From a virus (taxonomy: Duplodnaviria; Caudoviricetes): a stretch of 64,000 bases of DNA. Position numbers and translations under genes: made by a program. Below, piece by piece: positions 2,159 through 22,557 of the stretch. The stretch spans positions 4,227 to 68,226 of IMG/VR virus record IMGVR_UViG_3300020577_001581; one strand, 5' to 3'. Within the stretch, counting starts at the first letter, position 1, and every line of letters begins with the position of its first letter. The notes beneath the pieces were generated by a model. The model saw only the letters and a list, made by a program, of their open reading frames with translations. It was not told where the DNA came from and ran no database searches.

Positions 2159-3766
2159 ATGAGTTTCAAAGAATCTATTGCTAAGAAGTCTGTTAATAAG
2201 TTTCCTCCTCATCTTTTCATTGAAGCTAGAGCGGGAACAGGTAAAACTACTACATTAGTAGAAGGTCTAAAGTATATAAAGAATATTCCCACAAAGATTA
2301 TGCCTTCTGATCAACAAAAGGCTATTTGGGATTCTCTCATTCTTTCGAAGGATGCTCGTACAATTGGTTTTGTGGCATTTAATAAATCTATCGCAGATGA
2401 ACTTGCCGTACGCGTACCTGTTGGCTGTTCGGCAATGACTTTGCATAGTTTGGGCAATCGAGCATTATCTAATCAATTCGGACGATTAAAAGTAGAAAGC
2501 TATCGAGTATCAAACCTCATTTCGAAGATTGTAGGGATTGATGGTAGAGCTCTCAAAAAGAATAAGCCTATCGTAATGTCGAATACGGAAGAACTTGTCA
2601 GATTGTGCAAGCTTTCGTTAGTTAATCATGATATTACAGACGATGAATCGTGGGCTACATCATTAAATGAATTGTGCGAATATTATGATATTGAGTTTGA
2701 TAATGACACTCAAAAGAGTGAAGTATATTCTTTAATTCCACGTGTCATAGAAGCTTGTAAAGACGTACAAGCAGACTTACAAATTGATTTTAATGATATG
2801 ATTTGGCTACCTGTTGTACTTAACATCCCTCTTGTTAAGTATGATCTATTGTTAGTAGATGAAGCCCAGGACCTTAATAAGTGTCAACAGGAATTAGTTA
2901 AAAGATGTGGTTCACGATTAGTATTTTGTGGTGATCCACGTCAAGCTATCTATGGGTTTGCAGGAGCTGATTCACGTAGTATGGCACGATTGCAAGAGCA
3001 ATTAGCTAGCCTAGGTCAACAGACGCAAACTCTCAAGTTAACCGAAACTAGGCGATGTGGTAAAGCTATCGTTGTCGAAGCTAACCGTATCGTCGAAGAC
3101 TTTACAGCACATGAAAACAATCCTGCAGGTAAGGTAACCAGTCTTCAATTATCTACTGTATCATATGATGAAAATGGCGAACAATCAAAGAAAAAGTCAT
3201 TCGTCGATGAATTGCAATCAGGTGATATGGTTGTATGTCGGGTCAATGCTCAACTAGTTAATCAGTTTTTCCGTACCATAGCAAAGGGTAAGACATCGCG
3301 AATCATCGGTAGGGATATCGGACAGAACTTGATTAGCATTATCAAGAAGTGTACTAAAGAAAAGGTAATGCCTATCGAAGATCTTTTGATTGAACTTGAC
3401 ATATGGATGAACAAAGCACGTTCTAAGGAACTTGCTAAAACTAATCCATCTGAGAATCGTCTAGATGCTATTGCGGATAAGTATGATTGTCTAGTGATGT
3501 TTTGTCAAGACAAAGATACATCACAAGAAGTTATTGGATTCATCAACGAAGTGTTTAGCGATGACAAGCTTTCAACAGCTATCCGATTTAGCACAATCCA
3601 TAAAGCTAAAGGTCTAGAAGCTAAACGAGTATTCTTTCTCTCTGTTGATACTCAAGGTAACTTTTCATTTGCTGGAAAGTCTAAAGGATGGGGTAGAGAG
3701 CAAGAACATAACCTAGAGTATGTCGCAATTACTAGAGCTATAGAAGATTTATTCTATGTCGGTTAA
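2159..3766 (+). CDS. UvrD/Rep-like superfamily 1 DNA helicase
   Basis: ARAGTGKTT Walker A, AFNKSIA, VDEAQD, GDPRQAIYGF, STIHKAKGLE, YVAITRA. Confidence 0.95.
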   Translation: MSFKESIAKKSVNKFPPHLFIEARAGTGKTTTLVEGLKYIKNIPTKIMPSDQQKAIWDSLILSKDARTIGFVAFNKSIADELAVRVPVGCSAMTLHSLGNRALSNQFGRLKVESYRVSNLISKIVGIDGRALKKNKPIVMSNTEELVRLCKLSLVNHDITDDESWATSLNELCEYYDIEFDNDTQKSEVYSLIPRVIEACKDVQADLQIDFNDMIWLPVVLNIPLVKYDLLLVDEAQDLNKCQQELVKRCGSRLVFCGDPRQAIYGFAGADSRSMARLQEQLASLGQQTQTLKLTETRRCGKAIVVEANRIVEDFTAHENNPAGKVTSLQLSTVSYDENGEQSKKKSFVDELQSGDMVVCRVNAQLVNQFFRTIAKGKTSRIIGRDIGQNLISIIKKCTKEKVMPIEDLLIELDIWMNKARSKELAKTNPSENRLDAIADKYDCLVMFCQDKDTSQEVIGFINEVFSDDKLSTAIRFSTIHKAKGLEAKRVFFLSVDTQGNFSFAGKSKGWGREQEHNLEYVAITRAIEDLFYVG

Positions 3767-4244
3767 AAACATTTATTTGGGTATTGATCCAGGATACTCA
3801 AGCGGACATTTAGCTTTCCTTAATCAAGAGGGAAAGCTTATTCAACTAACTTCTATGCCAAAAATAGAACAGGAGTTAGTTGATTTATTCCATCATTGGA
3901 ATAGACCAGGTATATGGAAAATCTATTCATGTTTAGAAAATGTACATGCTATGCCAGGACAAGGTGTATCCACCATGTTTAAGTTTGGATGTAATTATGG
4001 TATGTTAAAAATGGGAATGATGACAATAGCAGACATTTGGACTATTGTAGATCCTAGAAAATGGCAGAAGTTTTTCGGATTAAAACGTTCTAAATCTTGG
4101 ACAGATAAAGAATGGAAAAAACACATAGCAAATAAAGCAAGGAAAGATTTTCCTACACAATCTAAACAGATAAAAGATTCTGCAGCTGATGCAATCATGC
4201 TAGCTAGGTACTGCTACTTGACAAACAACGGAATGACTGTATAA
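3756..4244 (+). CDS. ruvC: RuvC-like Holliday junction resolvase
   Basis: LGIDPG, ENVHAMPGQGVSTMFKFG, ADAIMLA. Confidence 0.85.
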   Translation: MSVKNIYLGIDPGYSSGHLAFLNQEGKLIQLTSMPKIEQELVDLFHHWNRPGIWKIYSCLENVHAMPGQGVSTMFKFGCNYGMLKMGMMTIADIWTIVDPRKWQKFFGLKRSKSWTDKEWKKHIANKARKDFPTQSKQIKDSAADAIMLARYCYLTNNGMTV

Positions 4245-4245
4245 T
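4218..4245 (+). promoter_or_regulatory. sigma70-type promoter
   Basis: TTGACA-N16-TATAAT immediately before a tRNA-like RNA. Confidence 0.7.
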
Positions 4246-4251
4246 ATAAGT

Positions 4252-4350
4252 GTGCTGGTCTTCTAAATGGTAGGATACTCAACAGATGTAAAGCTTTCGG
4301 CACCAGGCTCCATCGACAGAGTGATGTAGGTTCGATTCCTACCCAGCACA
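4252..4350 (+). ncRNA. tRNA-like RNA with a ~38-nt insert in place of the anticodon loop
   Basis: Acceptor GTGCTGG/CCAGCAC; D-arm TTCT-AAATGGT-AGGA; ACTC/GAGT stem enclosing 4281-4318; T-arm GTAGG-TTCGATT-CCTAC. Confidence 0.7.
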
Positions 4351-4380
4351 ATCTACACATACTTTAAGAGGAAGTATCTC

Positions 4381-4578
4381 ATGTCACTAATTGAAAAAAT
4401 AAAATACTATTGGAAACATTTTAAAGGTAGACTTAGATTAGATCTTAACTTAGTATGTGAACTAAGTAAAGATATGGGAACCTATGACTATCATGATTAT
4501 CCTGATGATGAAATAGGTACTCCATGTCATTTTGTAATACTCAAATGTAAACGATGTGGTAAAGAATTTTACATGTAA
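4381..4578 (+). CDS. small hypothetical protein with Zn-ribbon-like C-terminus
   Basis: GAGG SD; C-terminal CH...CKRCG. Confidence 0.65.
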   Translation: MSLIEKIKYYWKHFKGRLRLDLNLVCELSKDMGTYDYHDYPDDEIGTPCHFVILKCKRCGKEFYM

Positions 4579-4592
4579 ATCATCTAAGAGGG

Positions 4593-5045
4593 ATGAAAAT
4601 GTCATTTGTTACTAAAGATGTTACTATTGTTTGGGAAAAGGGCCACTATCCTACAAAAAAGAGTTACGATAGAGTACATAAAGATTCATTAGTTTACAAA
4701 GAAATATTTGCAATAGTTCTAGTTAATCACTTTCCCCCAGGAAATGTATGGAATGGATACCGTATATATTCCTTACGTACAAAACATTTTGTAACTAAAC
4801 TAGGTTCACAAAACTTAGACACTTTAAAGAAACTTTGTGAATATCTTCTTAAAGATTACTATGGAGTATTCCGACAAGATGATGTAGCAAAGTTTCAAAA
4901 TCAAATGTATGTACGTTATGGAACTACTTCACTTGATCAAATGGAAGAATGGTTAAAGGAATTGACTTTTAAAAATAAACCATTCTATCCTTTGACAATC
5001 AAAGTAACAAAAGAAATTGAGGAAATAGAAGATGAGCAAGAGTAA
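4593..5045 (+). CDS. hypothetical protein
   Basis: 150-aa ORF tightly packed in the operon. Confidence 0.65.
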   Translation: MKMSFVTKDVTIVWEKGHYPTKKSYDRVHKDSLVYKEIFAIVLVNHFPPGNVWNGYRIYSLRTKHFVTKLGSQNLDTLKKLCEYLLKDYYGVFRQDDVAKFQNQMYVRYGTTSLDQMEEWLKELTFKNKPFYPLTIKVTKEIEEIEDEQE

Positions 5046-5610
5046 GCTGCAACTACATCTAGATAATTGGAAAGATTGTACTAGATGCAAACTACATGAG
5101 GTTAGACGTAATGTAGTTTTGCTACGTGGAACAGTACCGTGTGATATCCTGTTCATAGGTGAAGCTCCAGGAGAGTCAGAGAACGCGTTAGGTAAGCCTT
5201 TTAGAGGCCCTGCAGGCAATCTGTTACAAGAGATCATAGAAGTTACTCAGCAGCATACAAAAGGCTACACCTACGCAATGACTAACCTTATCGGATGCAT
5301 ACCCAAAGTAGATGGAGAGAAGCTAACTAGTCCACCGAAAGAATCTGTCACAGCATGCTTTCCACGTATCAACGAACTAGTTGAATTATGTAATCCAAAA
5401 GGATTAATATTAGTTGGAAATGATGCTCAAAAGTTTTTTGAACTACATAACAATAAACTACTACAACAAATAAAATTTATTAAGATTCAACATCCAGCAG
5501 CTATTTTACGTAAACCACAAGTATCATGGGGATTAGATTGTCAAAAAATTGAAATACAAATAACTGACTTTATAGAAGAATTGTACGGAGATAATAATGC
5601 TACTAATTAA
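5032..5610 (+). CDS. family 4 uracil-DNA glycosylase
   Basis: CTRC Fe-S ligands, FIGEAPG motif A, F.GPAG, TNLIGC.P, HPAAILR motif B. Confidence 0.92.
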   Translation: MSKSKLQLHLDNWKDCTRCKLHEVRRNVVLLRGTVPCDILFIGEAPGESENALGKPFRGPAGNLLQEIIEVTQQHTKGYTYAMTNLIGCIPKVDGEKLTSPPKESVTACFPRINELVELCNPKGLILVGNDAQKFFELHNNKLLQQIKFIKIQHPAAILRKPQVSWGLDCQKIEIQITDFIEELYGDNNATN

Positions 5611-5773
5611 TCGTGGAATTAATCAAGAAATTCTTTTATCATTAGAAGGATATAAATTAGGAAGGATTATAGTAACAGAAATTAGTGGTAAAAAAGTAAC
5701 ACTTGGATTTGAATTAGACAAAAATGTTGAAATAAAAAGGAAAGAATTAGATGACAAACAAACTAAAGAGTAA
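5597..5773 (+). CDS. csrA: CsrA/RsmA-like RNA-binding translational regulator (58 aa, missed by ORF track)
   Basis: MLLINRGINQEILL...GRIIVTEISGKKVTLGFELDKNVEIKRKEL fits the CsrA pattern ML.L.R...E.I.I...I.V..I.G..V.LG...P..V.I.R.E; GGAG SD; overlaps both neighbours. Confidence 0.75.
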   Translation: MLLINRGINQEILLSLEGYKLGRIIVTEISGKKVTLGFELDKNVEIKRKELDDKQTKE

Positions 5774-6842
5774 ACTGGAGAAGGTAACTAATCCACATTC
5801 CGGAGTGATCACTAGCTCGTTGTGGAAAGGTCCATACAAAGCTTGCAGTGAATCAGGTGTAACGTTCTCTATGCTCTCTCGATTCCTGATCTGTAGAGAG
5901 CGATTCAGGATAATGTACGTGGAAGGTCTAGGAAAGGAAGAACGGTTTGACGGTAAAATAGAGTTTGGTCAAATGTGGCATTTATGCGAAGAAGCATACA
6001 AACGTAAAGAAGATCATATTCAATTAGTTAGGAAATATGTTACTAACTTAAAGAAAAAATATCAATTGTATCACGAAGCAATTGAGGATGAATATGATAA
6101 ATGTATAGTAACTTTTCCACTATACGTTAAATATTGGGAACATCATCCCGATGAAAAAAATATGCTGAATCTCTTCCAGGAAAAAATATTCGGATATGAA
6201 TACACACTTCCAATATCAGGAAGAAAAATATATCTTAGAGGTAAGATAGATTCAGGAGATAAGATACAAGGGGATGGAATTTACGTAGCAGATAATAAAT
6301 CAAAAGGTAATATCAATTTAATTGAAATTCAAAATCAATTAAATTTTGATTTACAAATGATGATGTATCTACTTGTACTTAAATTAGATCGTACTATTAT
6401 TAAAGATCCTAAACAAATCAAAGGAATACGTTATAATATTGTAAGACATTCATTACATAAACATACTAAAAAAGATGGTACTAGAGAGAAATTTCGAGAC
6501 AGGTTAAAGGGTATAATAGAAGAAGATTTAGCTAGTGAACCTGATAACTGGTTTTCCAGATTCCAAGCTTTGATTAATGAACATGATATGAGTGAATTTC
6601 TTACTACATCATTCAATCCTATTTTAGAACAATTATGTGATTGGTGGGATTGTTTAAATGGTAGTAGAGTAAACGAGAATGCACATAAATACCAGAACTT
6701 TAGATATCCGTATGGTATTTATCATGTTCTTAATCAAGGTGGATCAGGAGAGCTAGATCTGTATTTAAACAAAAAATCTAAAGTAGGATTAATTAAACGA
6801 AAATTATTTAGGGAGCTAAATGCAGATGGCTATAGTGAATAA
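5751..6842 (+). CDS. PD-(D/E)XK exonuclease (Cas4/RecB-like)
   Basis: FSMLSRF..C.ERF, RGKID, ADNKSK, Q..MY. Confidence 0.8.
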   Translation: MTNKLKSKLEKVTNPHSGVITSSLWKGPYKACSESGVTFSMLSRFLICRERFRIMYVEGLGKEERFDGKIEFGQMWHLCEEAYKRKEDHIQLVRKYVTNLKKKYQLYHEAIEDEYDKCIVTFPLYVKYWEHHPDEKNMLNLFQEKIFGYEYTLPISGRKIYLRGKIDSGDKIQGDGIYVADNKSKGNINLIEIQNQLNFDLQMMMYLLVLKLDRTIIKDPKQIKGIRYNIVRHSLHKHTKKDGTREKFRDRLKGIIEEDLASEPDNWFSRFQALINEHDMSEFLTTSFNPILEQLCDWWDCLNGSRVNENAHKYQNFRYPYGIYHVLNQGGSGELDLYLNKKSKVGLIKRKLFRELNADGYSE

Positions 6843-7701
6843 ACAAACAATGCAACCTGCTAAAAAACCGTTCGTACCTATCAAAGGTCAAGTAAACACA
6901 CAACAAAAGAAACCAAAGTCAGCATGGGAATTACCTGAAACTATCAAAATTATGTTATATGGTAGATCAGGTACAGGCAAAACAACATTATGGAGTACGT
7001 TTCCAGGTCCTATTTGTGCATGTATTACAAGTAATATCAAAAGTACAGGAGAATTACGAAGTATAGATACTCCTGAAATGCGTAATAAAATTACTCCTTA
7101 TATCATAAAAGAATCAAGTGAACTTACTTGGATTCTAGAAAATGCAGCATCTGAAGGATTTAAAACTATCGTATTAGATCATGTTACAGGTATGCAGGAT
7201 TTAATTCTTAAAGAAGTAACAGGAGTAGATAAGATACCTGAACAAAAAAACTGGGGAATATTTACCAGAGAGCAATACGGACAAGCTGTAGCACAAGCAA
7301 AGGAATATCTTAGATTAGCTCTTGATTTACCTATGAATACTGTTATAATAGGACAAGAGAGAGTATTCAATAGTAAAGATGAAGGTAGTGATGATGAACA
7401 ATTAAAACCGCTTGTAGGAGCTGATACTTCACCAGCTCTAGGTAGGTGGTTAAATCCTACAGTAGATTATCTACTTCAATGTTTCGTACGTCCTAAGTAT
7501 ATTACAAAAGAAATAGATAATGCAGGTAAAAAAGTTAAAAAGGAGGTAAGAGTAGAAGGAGAAGTAGAATATTGTGTACGTTGTGAACCTCATGAAACTT
7601 TTATGACGAAGTTTCGATCTACTGTTAAGTATGATCAACGTACTAAAGTTATAATCAATCCCGATTATAACAAAATCATGAAAGCAATTAAAGGTAATTA
7701 A
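6820..7701 (+). CDS. AAA ATPase (Sak4/AAA_24-like recombination protein)
   Basis: MLYGRSGTGKTT Walker A, IVLDH Walker B; start may be 6826. Confidence 0.85.
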   Translation: MQMAIVNKQTMQPAKKPFVPIKGQVNTQQKKPKSAWELPETIKIMLYGRSGTGKTTLWSTFPGPICACITSNIKSTGELRSIDTPEMRNKITPYIIKESSELTWILENAASEGFKTIVLDHVTGMQDLILKEVTGVDKIPEQKNWGIFTREQYGQAVAQAKEYLRLALDLPMNTVIIGQERVFNSKDEGSDDEQLKPLVGADTSPALGRWLNPTVDYLLQCFVRPKYITKEIDNAGKKVKKEVRVEGEVEYCVRCEPHETFMTKFRSTVKYDQRTKVIINPDYNKIMKAIKGN

Positions 7702-17973: not shown

Positions 17974-18002
17974 TTGACATTTTATATAATATTCCTTATA
18001 AT
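17974..18002 (+). promoter_or_regulatory. consensus sigma70 promoter
   Basis: TTGACA-N17-TATAAT before the primase-helicase gene. Confidence 0.8.
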
Positions 18003-22484: not shown

Positions 22485-22557
22485 GGGACTATAGCTCAAC
22501 GGTAAGAGCAGGAGACTCATAATCTCTTGGTTCTAGGTTCGAATCCTAGTAGTCCCA
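22485..22557 (+). tRNA. tRNA-Ile2 (CAT anticodon, lysidine type; Met cannot be excluded)
   Basis: Canonical cloverleaf GGGACTA/TAGTCCC; anticodon arm GGAGA-CT-CAT-AA-TCTCT resembles enterobacterial ileX; no encoded CCA. Confidence 0.85.

Follow-up and report, generated by a model that had tools for sequence, protein, structure and literature searches.

The window analysed here, a stretch of 64,000 nt, is most of a 68,226-bp IMG/VR virus record, which CheckV places at 95% completeness. At positions 4252-4350 of its plus strand lies a tRNA-shaped RNA gene of 99 nt, for which E2 is used as a working name. The element is intergenic, starting 7 nt past the stop codon of a RuvC-like resolvase gene (3756-4244, +) and ending 30 nt ahead of the next ATG. 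It is directly preceded by a sigma-70-type promoter (TTGACA-16 nt-TATAAT, 4218-4245, +) that matches the consensus at 12 of 12 positions, is contained within the last codons and the stop of the resolvase gene and overlaps the stop codon TAA itself (4242-4244). The gap between the end of the promoter and the start of E2 is only about 6-7 nt, and the predicted transcription start falls at approximately G4252, namely at tRNA position +1. An earlier note, made from the letters of this DNA, had E2 begin a few nucleotides after a TTGACA/TATAAT promoter, as is indeed the case with the perfect site ending at 4245.

Downstream of E2, a 30-nt spacer (4351-4380, +) contains the Shine-Dalgarno sequence GAGGA (approx. 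4369-4373) inside a hairpin, AUACUUU/GAAGUAU, at 4359-4377, as identified from sequence and fold. The operon headed by E2 (4381-7701, +), delineated from the ORF list and from PHROGs and Pfam matches, encodes, all on the plus strand, a 65-aa ORF (4381-4578), a 150-aa ORF located between the latter and the following gene, a UDG-family protein (5032-5610), a CsrA homologue (5597-5773), an exonuclease (5751-6842) and a Sak4-like annealing protein (6820-7701). No terminator-like site was found between E2 and the downstream ORFs. The CsrA assignment of the 58-aa ORF at 5597-5773 (+) stems from a Pfam score of 30.5 bits against a cut-off of 27 (E 3.4e-7), and the hairpin at 4359-4377 that holds the Shine-Dalgarno sequence of the first ORF has a GGA at the loop edge, so that it could be a CsrA-type site. 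A role of E2 as a CsrA sponge was rejected, the sole GGA of the element being part of the D stem and not of a hairpin loop.

A genome-wide scan of the 68-kb genome revealed only two promoters with a 12/12 match on the plus strand, at 4218-4245 and at 17974-18002. The latter (TTGACA-17-TATAAT, +) is found in the gap before the gene of a 746-aa zinc-ribbon (primase-like) protein, with no structured RNA behind it. The same scan returned three sites matching at 11 of 12 positions, one of which (TTGACG-17-TATAAT, 2011-2039, +) adjoins a sister element, E1, a tRNA-shaped RNA with a 13-nt anticodon loop (2050-2126, +). E1 sits 31 nt ahead of the helicase start, with the same layout as E2, and the proposal of two promoter-leading mimics holds for both elements, each being directly behind its promoter. 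The two normal tRNAs of the genome, Met-CAU and Leu-UAA, are also found between co-directional genes, and the genuine tRNA-Met (22485-22557) precedes a gene start by 22 nt.

The Rfam tRNA model (RF00005) covers E2 end to end (4252-4350, +) with a score of 37.1 bits against a cut-off of 29 and E-values of 3.5e-4 (all families over the whole window) and 8.7e-8 (single family over the genome). The acceptor stem GUGCUGG/CCAGCAC (4252-4258/4343-4349) is Watson-Crick paired at all seven positions and is followed by the discriminator base A4350, corresponding to A73, with no CCA encoded at the 3' end. The T arm (4326-4342; GUAGG-UUCGAUU-CCUAC) has a fully paired stem (5/5) and a canonical T loop. The D arm (4261-4276; UUCU-AAAUGGUA-GGAU) has a weak stem with one U-U and one G-U pair. 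Thus, the earlier description of a tRNA mimic with a perfect 7-bp acceptor stem, a D arm and a T arm was correct, the D stem being its weak part. The nucleotides engaged in tertiary contacts in tRNA are also intact, and an L-shaped body is plausible for E2 because U8, A14, G18G19, the A15-U48 Levitt pair, U54-A58 and G53-C61 are all present. With its three arms, its conserved loop nucleotides and a score above the gathering threshold, E2 has what defines a tRNA fold. ARAGORN run with default settings calls no tRNA at this position, and no other Rfam family matches the 4235-4385 region at E values up to 10. The latter result eliminated the small self-cleaving ribozymes (hammerhead, twister, pistol, hatchet and HDV-like) as candidates for E2, and none was found anywhere in the window at E values up to 0.5. 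A tmRNA was discarded as well, since neither ARAGORN nor the Rfam scan identified one.

The part of E2 that departs from tRNA is the enlarged anticodon arm (4278-4321, +), in which, according to both the cmscan alignment and the folds, a 3-bp remnant of the stem, CUC (4278-4280) paired with GAG (4319-4321), surrounds an insert of 38 nt (4281-4318, +). The cmscan alignment gives exactly the coordinates that had been proposed for the enclosed segment, and the 38 nt occupy the place of 11 positions of the RF00005 model. In the minimum free energy (MFE) fold the insert consists of a 4 x 4 internal loop (AACA/GACA), a GAUG/CAUC helix (4285-4288/4311-4314), a 3-nt bulge, an AGCUU/AGGCU helix (4292-4296/4305-4309) and an apical loop of 8 nt, UCGGCACC (4297-4304). 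Readings of the internal loop as a kink-turn or a loop E motif were ruled out by inspection. The pairings noticed at first are therefore part of the MFE fold; the stability of the arm, in contrast, is no better than that of 10-21 of 200 shuffled sequences (5-10%, z −1.3 to −1.7), so that the description of a 'structured insert' is only weakly supported. A decoding tRNA has a 5-bp anticodon stem, a 7-nt loop, U33 and a purine at position 37. E2 cannot decode because the 7-nt anticodon loop and U33 are absent and the anticodon stem, around its 38 nt, is just 3 bp long; its apical loop UCGGCACC also has no U at position 2. Considering the insert as the long variable arm of a class II tRNA did not help, as no anticodon arm of the 5/7/5 type can be fitted.

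If an endonuclease and a ligase, both proteins, excised the insert and joined the ends, as proposed for the Lak phage introns called 'enigmatic' or for archaeal bulge-helix-bulge introns, E2 could give rise to a working tRNA. When introns are allowed, a relaxed ARAGORN run does call a tRNA-Arg(UCG) with a 29-nt intron at position 31/32, albeit with a 4-bp stem and an A33 loop, and inserts other than group I introns have been described in phage tRNA genes, namely as the 'enigmatic' introns of Lak megaphages (Devoto et al. 2019, PMC6784885). Like the latter, E2 has a short non-group-I insert in the anticodon region of a phage tRNA; however, tRNA type and anticodon can be assigned for the Lak genes once the insert is removed (PMC6784885), whereas for E2 an exhaustive enumeration of the single excisions in the anticodon region yielded none that combines a 5-bp stem with Y32, U33 and R37. 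The best score was 6 out of 8, the best candidates being ACUCA-CAUCGAC-AGAGU, in which an A-A mismatch leaves four stem pairs and the loop has A33, and a perfect stem around the non-canonical loop ACAGAUG. That the insert does not restore a YU-NNN-R loop in an obvious way had been anticipated, and the enumeration extends this statement to every single excision. The bulge-helix-bulge option was also rejected by inspection: the helices and bulges of E2 are arranged as 4 nt/4 bp/3 nt on the 5' strand and 1 nt/4 bp/4 nt on the 3' strand, and not in the canonical 3-4-3 layout, in which a 4-bp helix has a 3-nt bulge at either end, one on each strand. Neither a splicing endonuclease nor an RNA ligase emerged among the 20 proteins scanned with PHROGs or Pfam, which are a minority of the ORFs. 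A group I intron was excluded as initially argued, given that 38 nt cannot accommodate a core of approximately 200 nt or more (P3-P8), and no Rfam intron matched at E values up to 10. By taking into account these results, the removal of the insert to yield a functional tRNA is improbable. Since no single excision restores a normal anticodon arm, E2 qualifies neither as a tRNA that decodes nor as one with a simple intron; it is a tRNA-shaped, non-decoding RNA gene.

Orthologues of E2 were sought by several routes. None was found among cultured phages with megablast and blastn, and these phages are distant, with helicase identities of 33% or less. Searching viral contigs with the resolvase protein did not return an E2 orthologue, nor did searching genome contigs with a resolvase alignment; with the same type of alignment, the best match among metagenome contigs was 35% identical and had no tRNA-like element nearby. 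Three DNA patterns, built on E2 or on the features common to E1 and E2 and used against viral contigs (two of them) or genome contigs (one), also led to no orthologue. An 86%-identical resolvase, P0002, is encoded on a 21.8-kb contig. Its differences from the resolvase of the window (3756-4244, +) are unevenly distributed, 21 being in the first 94 residues and one in the last 68, and the latter stretch spans the embedded promoter, a pattern that suggests a recombination boundary or an additional constraint acting on the DNA. The claim that the two mimics reflect design rather than decay was not substantiated, the fold of the insert being no better than chance and the orthologue searches being empty.

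A broader comparison was made possible by relatives gathered through their helicase (31-52% identity), whose entire records were scanned with RF00005. In none of them does a tRNA adjoin the helicase gene. Five or six further tRNA-model matches with anticodon regions of 18-77 nt were detected, in L051, L054, L138, L140, L141 (a weak match) and the distant L159. That in L140 (1501-1638, −) is 138 nt long, has the form CUC[77]GAG and is found beside a normal tRNA with the anticodon CUA; in the 89-nt element of L138, 36 nt replace the arm; the 121-nt element of L054 combines a 28-nt loop with a long variable arm and has a promoter-like site upstream; the 79-nt element of L051 has an 18-nt anticodon region and a D arm resembling that of E1; the 89-nt element of L141 scores 20.7 bits, which is below the cut-off; and that of the more distant relative L159 (1501-1596, −) is 96 nt long. 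In the last, the anticodon stem has 4 bp, the loop 5 nt and the variable region approximately 30 nt; this element directly follows a terminator-like hairpin, 20 nt before a 493-aa ORF. The normal tRNA of L140 (1323-1396, −), approximately 100 nt downstream of the 138-nt mimic, is an amber suppressor that may point to TAG recoding; L140 itself is an 81.7-kb record with terminal repeats. A specific homology between E2 and the L140 element was discarded because, besides CUC/GAG, they have in common only the universal tRNA positions, and a DNA pattern derived from the L140 element matched L140 itself only.

The enlarged regions of these relatives do not have a common sequence, length or fold, and the tRNA bodies are canonical. 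Only the L140 arm, taken alone, is clearly structured (z −3.8), and in none of the six analogous elements does a single excision give a canonical arm, which also weighs against the intron-based reading of E2. A constant body with a variable anticodon region is the pattern to be expected if only the body is used. Most such elements, as well as the ribozymes and the real tRNAs, are found in short gaps, the following start codon being at most 60 nt away.

The same comparison bears on whether E2 is simply the functionless remnant of a once-functional phage tRNA that suffered an insertion in the anticodon arm. The wrecked arm, with its 3-bp stem and no U33 loop, the U-U mismatch in the D stem and the unremarkable fold of the insert are what decay would produce. 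Against decay, the acceptor stem (7/7), the T stem (5/5) and all of the elbow nucleotides are intact, and the element is exactly placed, with a perfect promoter ending 6 nt upstream and a start codon 30 nt downstream, in a layout that E1 repeats. Furthermore, in our tally the enlarged kind makes up approximately six of the 16 tRNA-model matches in the closer relatives, as opposed to approximately two of 60 in the distant set. We consider a decaying tRNA gene quite unlikely. The case for a function of E2 is indirect, and is built on the intact tRNA body, the adjacency to the promoter, the distance of approximately 30 nt from the start codon, the similar oddities in relatives and the presence of ribozymes in the same slots.

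With respect to the latter, Hammerhead_II (RF02276) was identified in the relatives L003, L004 and L010, and Twister-P5 (RF02684) in L003. In L010, Hammerhead_II ends 17 nt before the Shine-Dalgarno sequence and ATG of the helicase gene, which is exactly the slot of E1. In L003, a 90-aa ORF precedes the gap that contains Twister-P5, and a Shine-Dalgarno sequence and ATG directly follow the ribozyme; on a larger scale, the helicase module lies on one side of it and a UDG-like gene on the other, with small ORFs intervening, an arrangement that parallels the slot of E2. As the small ORFs next to them are not homologous, the slot of this ribozyme and that of E2 are equivalent in gene order alone. 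E2 has no sequence or fold relationship with hammerhead or twister ribozymes. Like the intergenic ribozymes of phages, it is found in a short gap between co-directional genes, a few tens of nucleotides before a Shine-Dalgarno sequence and ATG; unlike these ribozymes, which self-cleave leaving a 5'-OH, a tRNA mimic would need the host RNase P and RNase Z, leaving a 5'-phosphate. The function of hammerhead and twister ribozymes that are genomically encoded in phages is still open, and a participation of bacterial and phage ribozymes in the processing of polycistronic mRNAs has been suggested, but not shown (PMC6765202).

Other observations were made on these records. The UDG-like gene of L003 (7015-7839, +) matches the UDG of the window in two pieces, and the extra segment, which hits phrog_464, may be an inserted domain. 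The helicase gene of L013 (2471-3103 and 4001-4882) is split by approximately 900 nt between query residues 235 and 231, and an intron, an intein or an inserted gene may be the cause. An int-alpA RNA (RF02996) is also present in L013 (8753-8819).

The strength of the promoter invites the consideration that E2 may act in trans, as a small RNA built on a tRNA scaffold, with the downstream genes being merely co-transcribed. One of the two strongest promoter matches of the genome would fire at approximately tRNA +1, leading to an abundant and stable CCA-tailed look-alike, whose body or insert could titrate or act as a decoy for a host factor, for instance an RNA-binding protein, an enzyme that processes or modifies tRNAs or a defence nuclease directed against them. 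RNAs are known to be stabilized by a tRNA scaffold, and two such genes, E1 and E2, are present in one small genome. Indeed, a start at tRNA +1 is no less compatible with a highly expressed RNA acting in trans, or with a 5' structure that protects the message, than with simple punctuation. However, a k-mer search for antisense targets of the insert in the phage genome gave longest matches of 11 nt, which is the chance level, and its fold is no better than that of shuffled sequences; the analogous elements of relatives have no insert motif in common; and E2 does not present the mimic of an anticodon loop that a decoy for an anticodon nuclease would need. No terminator follows E2 and, therefore, it is not a stand-alone gene. 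On balance, an action in trans is unlikely.

A particular form of trans-acting RNA would be a Y-RNA-like partner of a Ro60-type protein, in which the anticodon loop of a tRNA mimic in normal order has given way to a handle that binds the protein. The YrlA-type Y RNAs that work with Ro60/Rsr are reportedly circularly permuted and endowed with a Ro-binding helix, as Chen et al. are said to have described in 2014. E2 resembles YrlA in having a tRNA-like body with the anticodon side replaced by another module; it differs in its normal order, in the missing handle motif and in belonging to a phage with no Ro60-like gene. The ACAGCAA motif is absent from E2, its two copies in the window being both elsewhere; no TROVE (PF05731) or DUF2828 (PF11443) gene is present in the 95%-complete genome; and neither YrlA nor any other Rfam family matches at E values up to 10. 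Such an identity is largely refuted, and we would find it very surprising.

The best explanation, which we place at about the balance of probability, is that E2 is a cis-acting, non-decoding, tRNA-shaped leader that is recognized by RNase P and RNase Z in a manner resembling the t-elements of plant mitochondria, and that marks a site where the message is cut or capped. The fold, the promoter, the position, the missing decodable anticodon and the ribozymes of the relatives are what speaks for it, and from these its transcription, its cleavage by RNase P and RNase Z and its effect on the mRNA would follow as predictions. What RNase P, RNase Z and the CCA-adding enzyme recognize in a tRNA is the elbow and the half formed by acceptor and T arm, and the anticodon arm is not needed by RNase P and RNase Z. 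E2 would be at the extreme 5' end of the transcript of an early or middle phage operon, and its acceptor/T-arm/elbow body would make it a substrate for the tRNA-end enzymes of the host. RNase Z or RNase E would cut just past A4350, while, on transcripts reading through from the helicase-resolvase operon, cleavage by RNase P would occur before G4252. In this manner, E2 would separate the cistrons and the downstream mRNA would acquire a defined short leader of 30 nt, with a stable tRNA-like by-product of approximately 100 nt left over. As long as it remains attached, E2 would provide the primary transcript with a 5' end that is fully base-paired and folded as a tRNA. The anticodon region would be dispensable for processing, and its idiosyncratic extension would also keep the RNA from translation. 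In the equivalent slots of related phages, hammerhead and twister ribozymes would achieve an equivalent cut independently of host enzymes. It should be considered that a cut defining the 5' end is unnecessary for the transcript from the promoter because transcription starts at tRNA +1.

Precedents for the single features of this cis-acting leader are available. For the t-elements of plant mitochondria, which are tRNA-like folds, it has been demonstrated that they set the ends of mRNAs (Forner et al. 2007, PMC1920247): both the 5' and the 3' ends of mRNAs arise from cleavage by RNase Z and RNase P on either side of such an element, and the excised t-element can persist and receive non-templated C or CA (PMC1920247). 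In phages, C4 RNA and M3 RNA are known non-tRNA substrates of RNase P (PMC11143913). As in t-elements, whose T arm has the conserved sequence GGTTCRANYCC, a non-canonical tRNA-like fold is found in E2 beside an mRNA end, abutting it on the same strand. Unlike the t-elements, which belong to an organelle, E2 is encoded by a bacteriophage directly behind a consensus promoter, so as to head the primary transcript, and it retains a full D arm and elbow along with the 38-nt extension of the anticodon arm, its cleavage being a prediction. With the tRNA genes embedded in phage and bacterial operons, E2 has in common a cloverleaf body scoring above the RF00005 threshold and a probable co-transcription with protein genes, but it differs from them for the absence of a 7-nt anticodon loop and of U33 and for the 3-bp stem.

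Taken more broadly, and only tentatively, E2 may belong to a clade-wide class of 'anticodon-less' tRNA mimics of phages, interchangeable with hammerhead and twister ribozymes for the shaping of mRNA ends, which might also be released as abundant CCA-tailed, non-decoding tRNAs that engage the tRNA enzymes of the host or defences directed at tRNAs. Processing signals of tRNA-like shape are already known, as are phage tRNAs within operons. The novelty consists in a mimic that has a full tRNA body, carries a 38-nt extension of the arm and directly follows a consensus promoter, in its recurrence across a clade of phages and in the apparent interchange with ribozymes. For annotation, the present case is a warning that a match to a tRNA model in a phage genome is not always a tRNA that decodes, and elements of this type may supply synthetic operons with compact, naturally occurring modules for RNA processing. 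If the proposed role is correct, bacteriophages would punctuate or cap their messages with tRNA look-alikes, as plant mitochondria do with t-elements. The swap of such mimics for self-cleaving ribozymes at the same slots would then represent evidence, from a natural experiment, on the purpose of phage ribozymes, which has been called unresolved (PMC6765202), and a clade-wide class of mimics would offer a direct genetic handle on the role of the self-cleaving ribozymes of phages.
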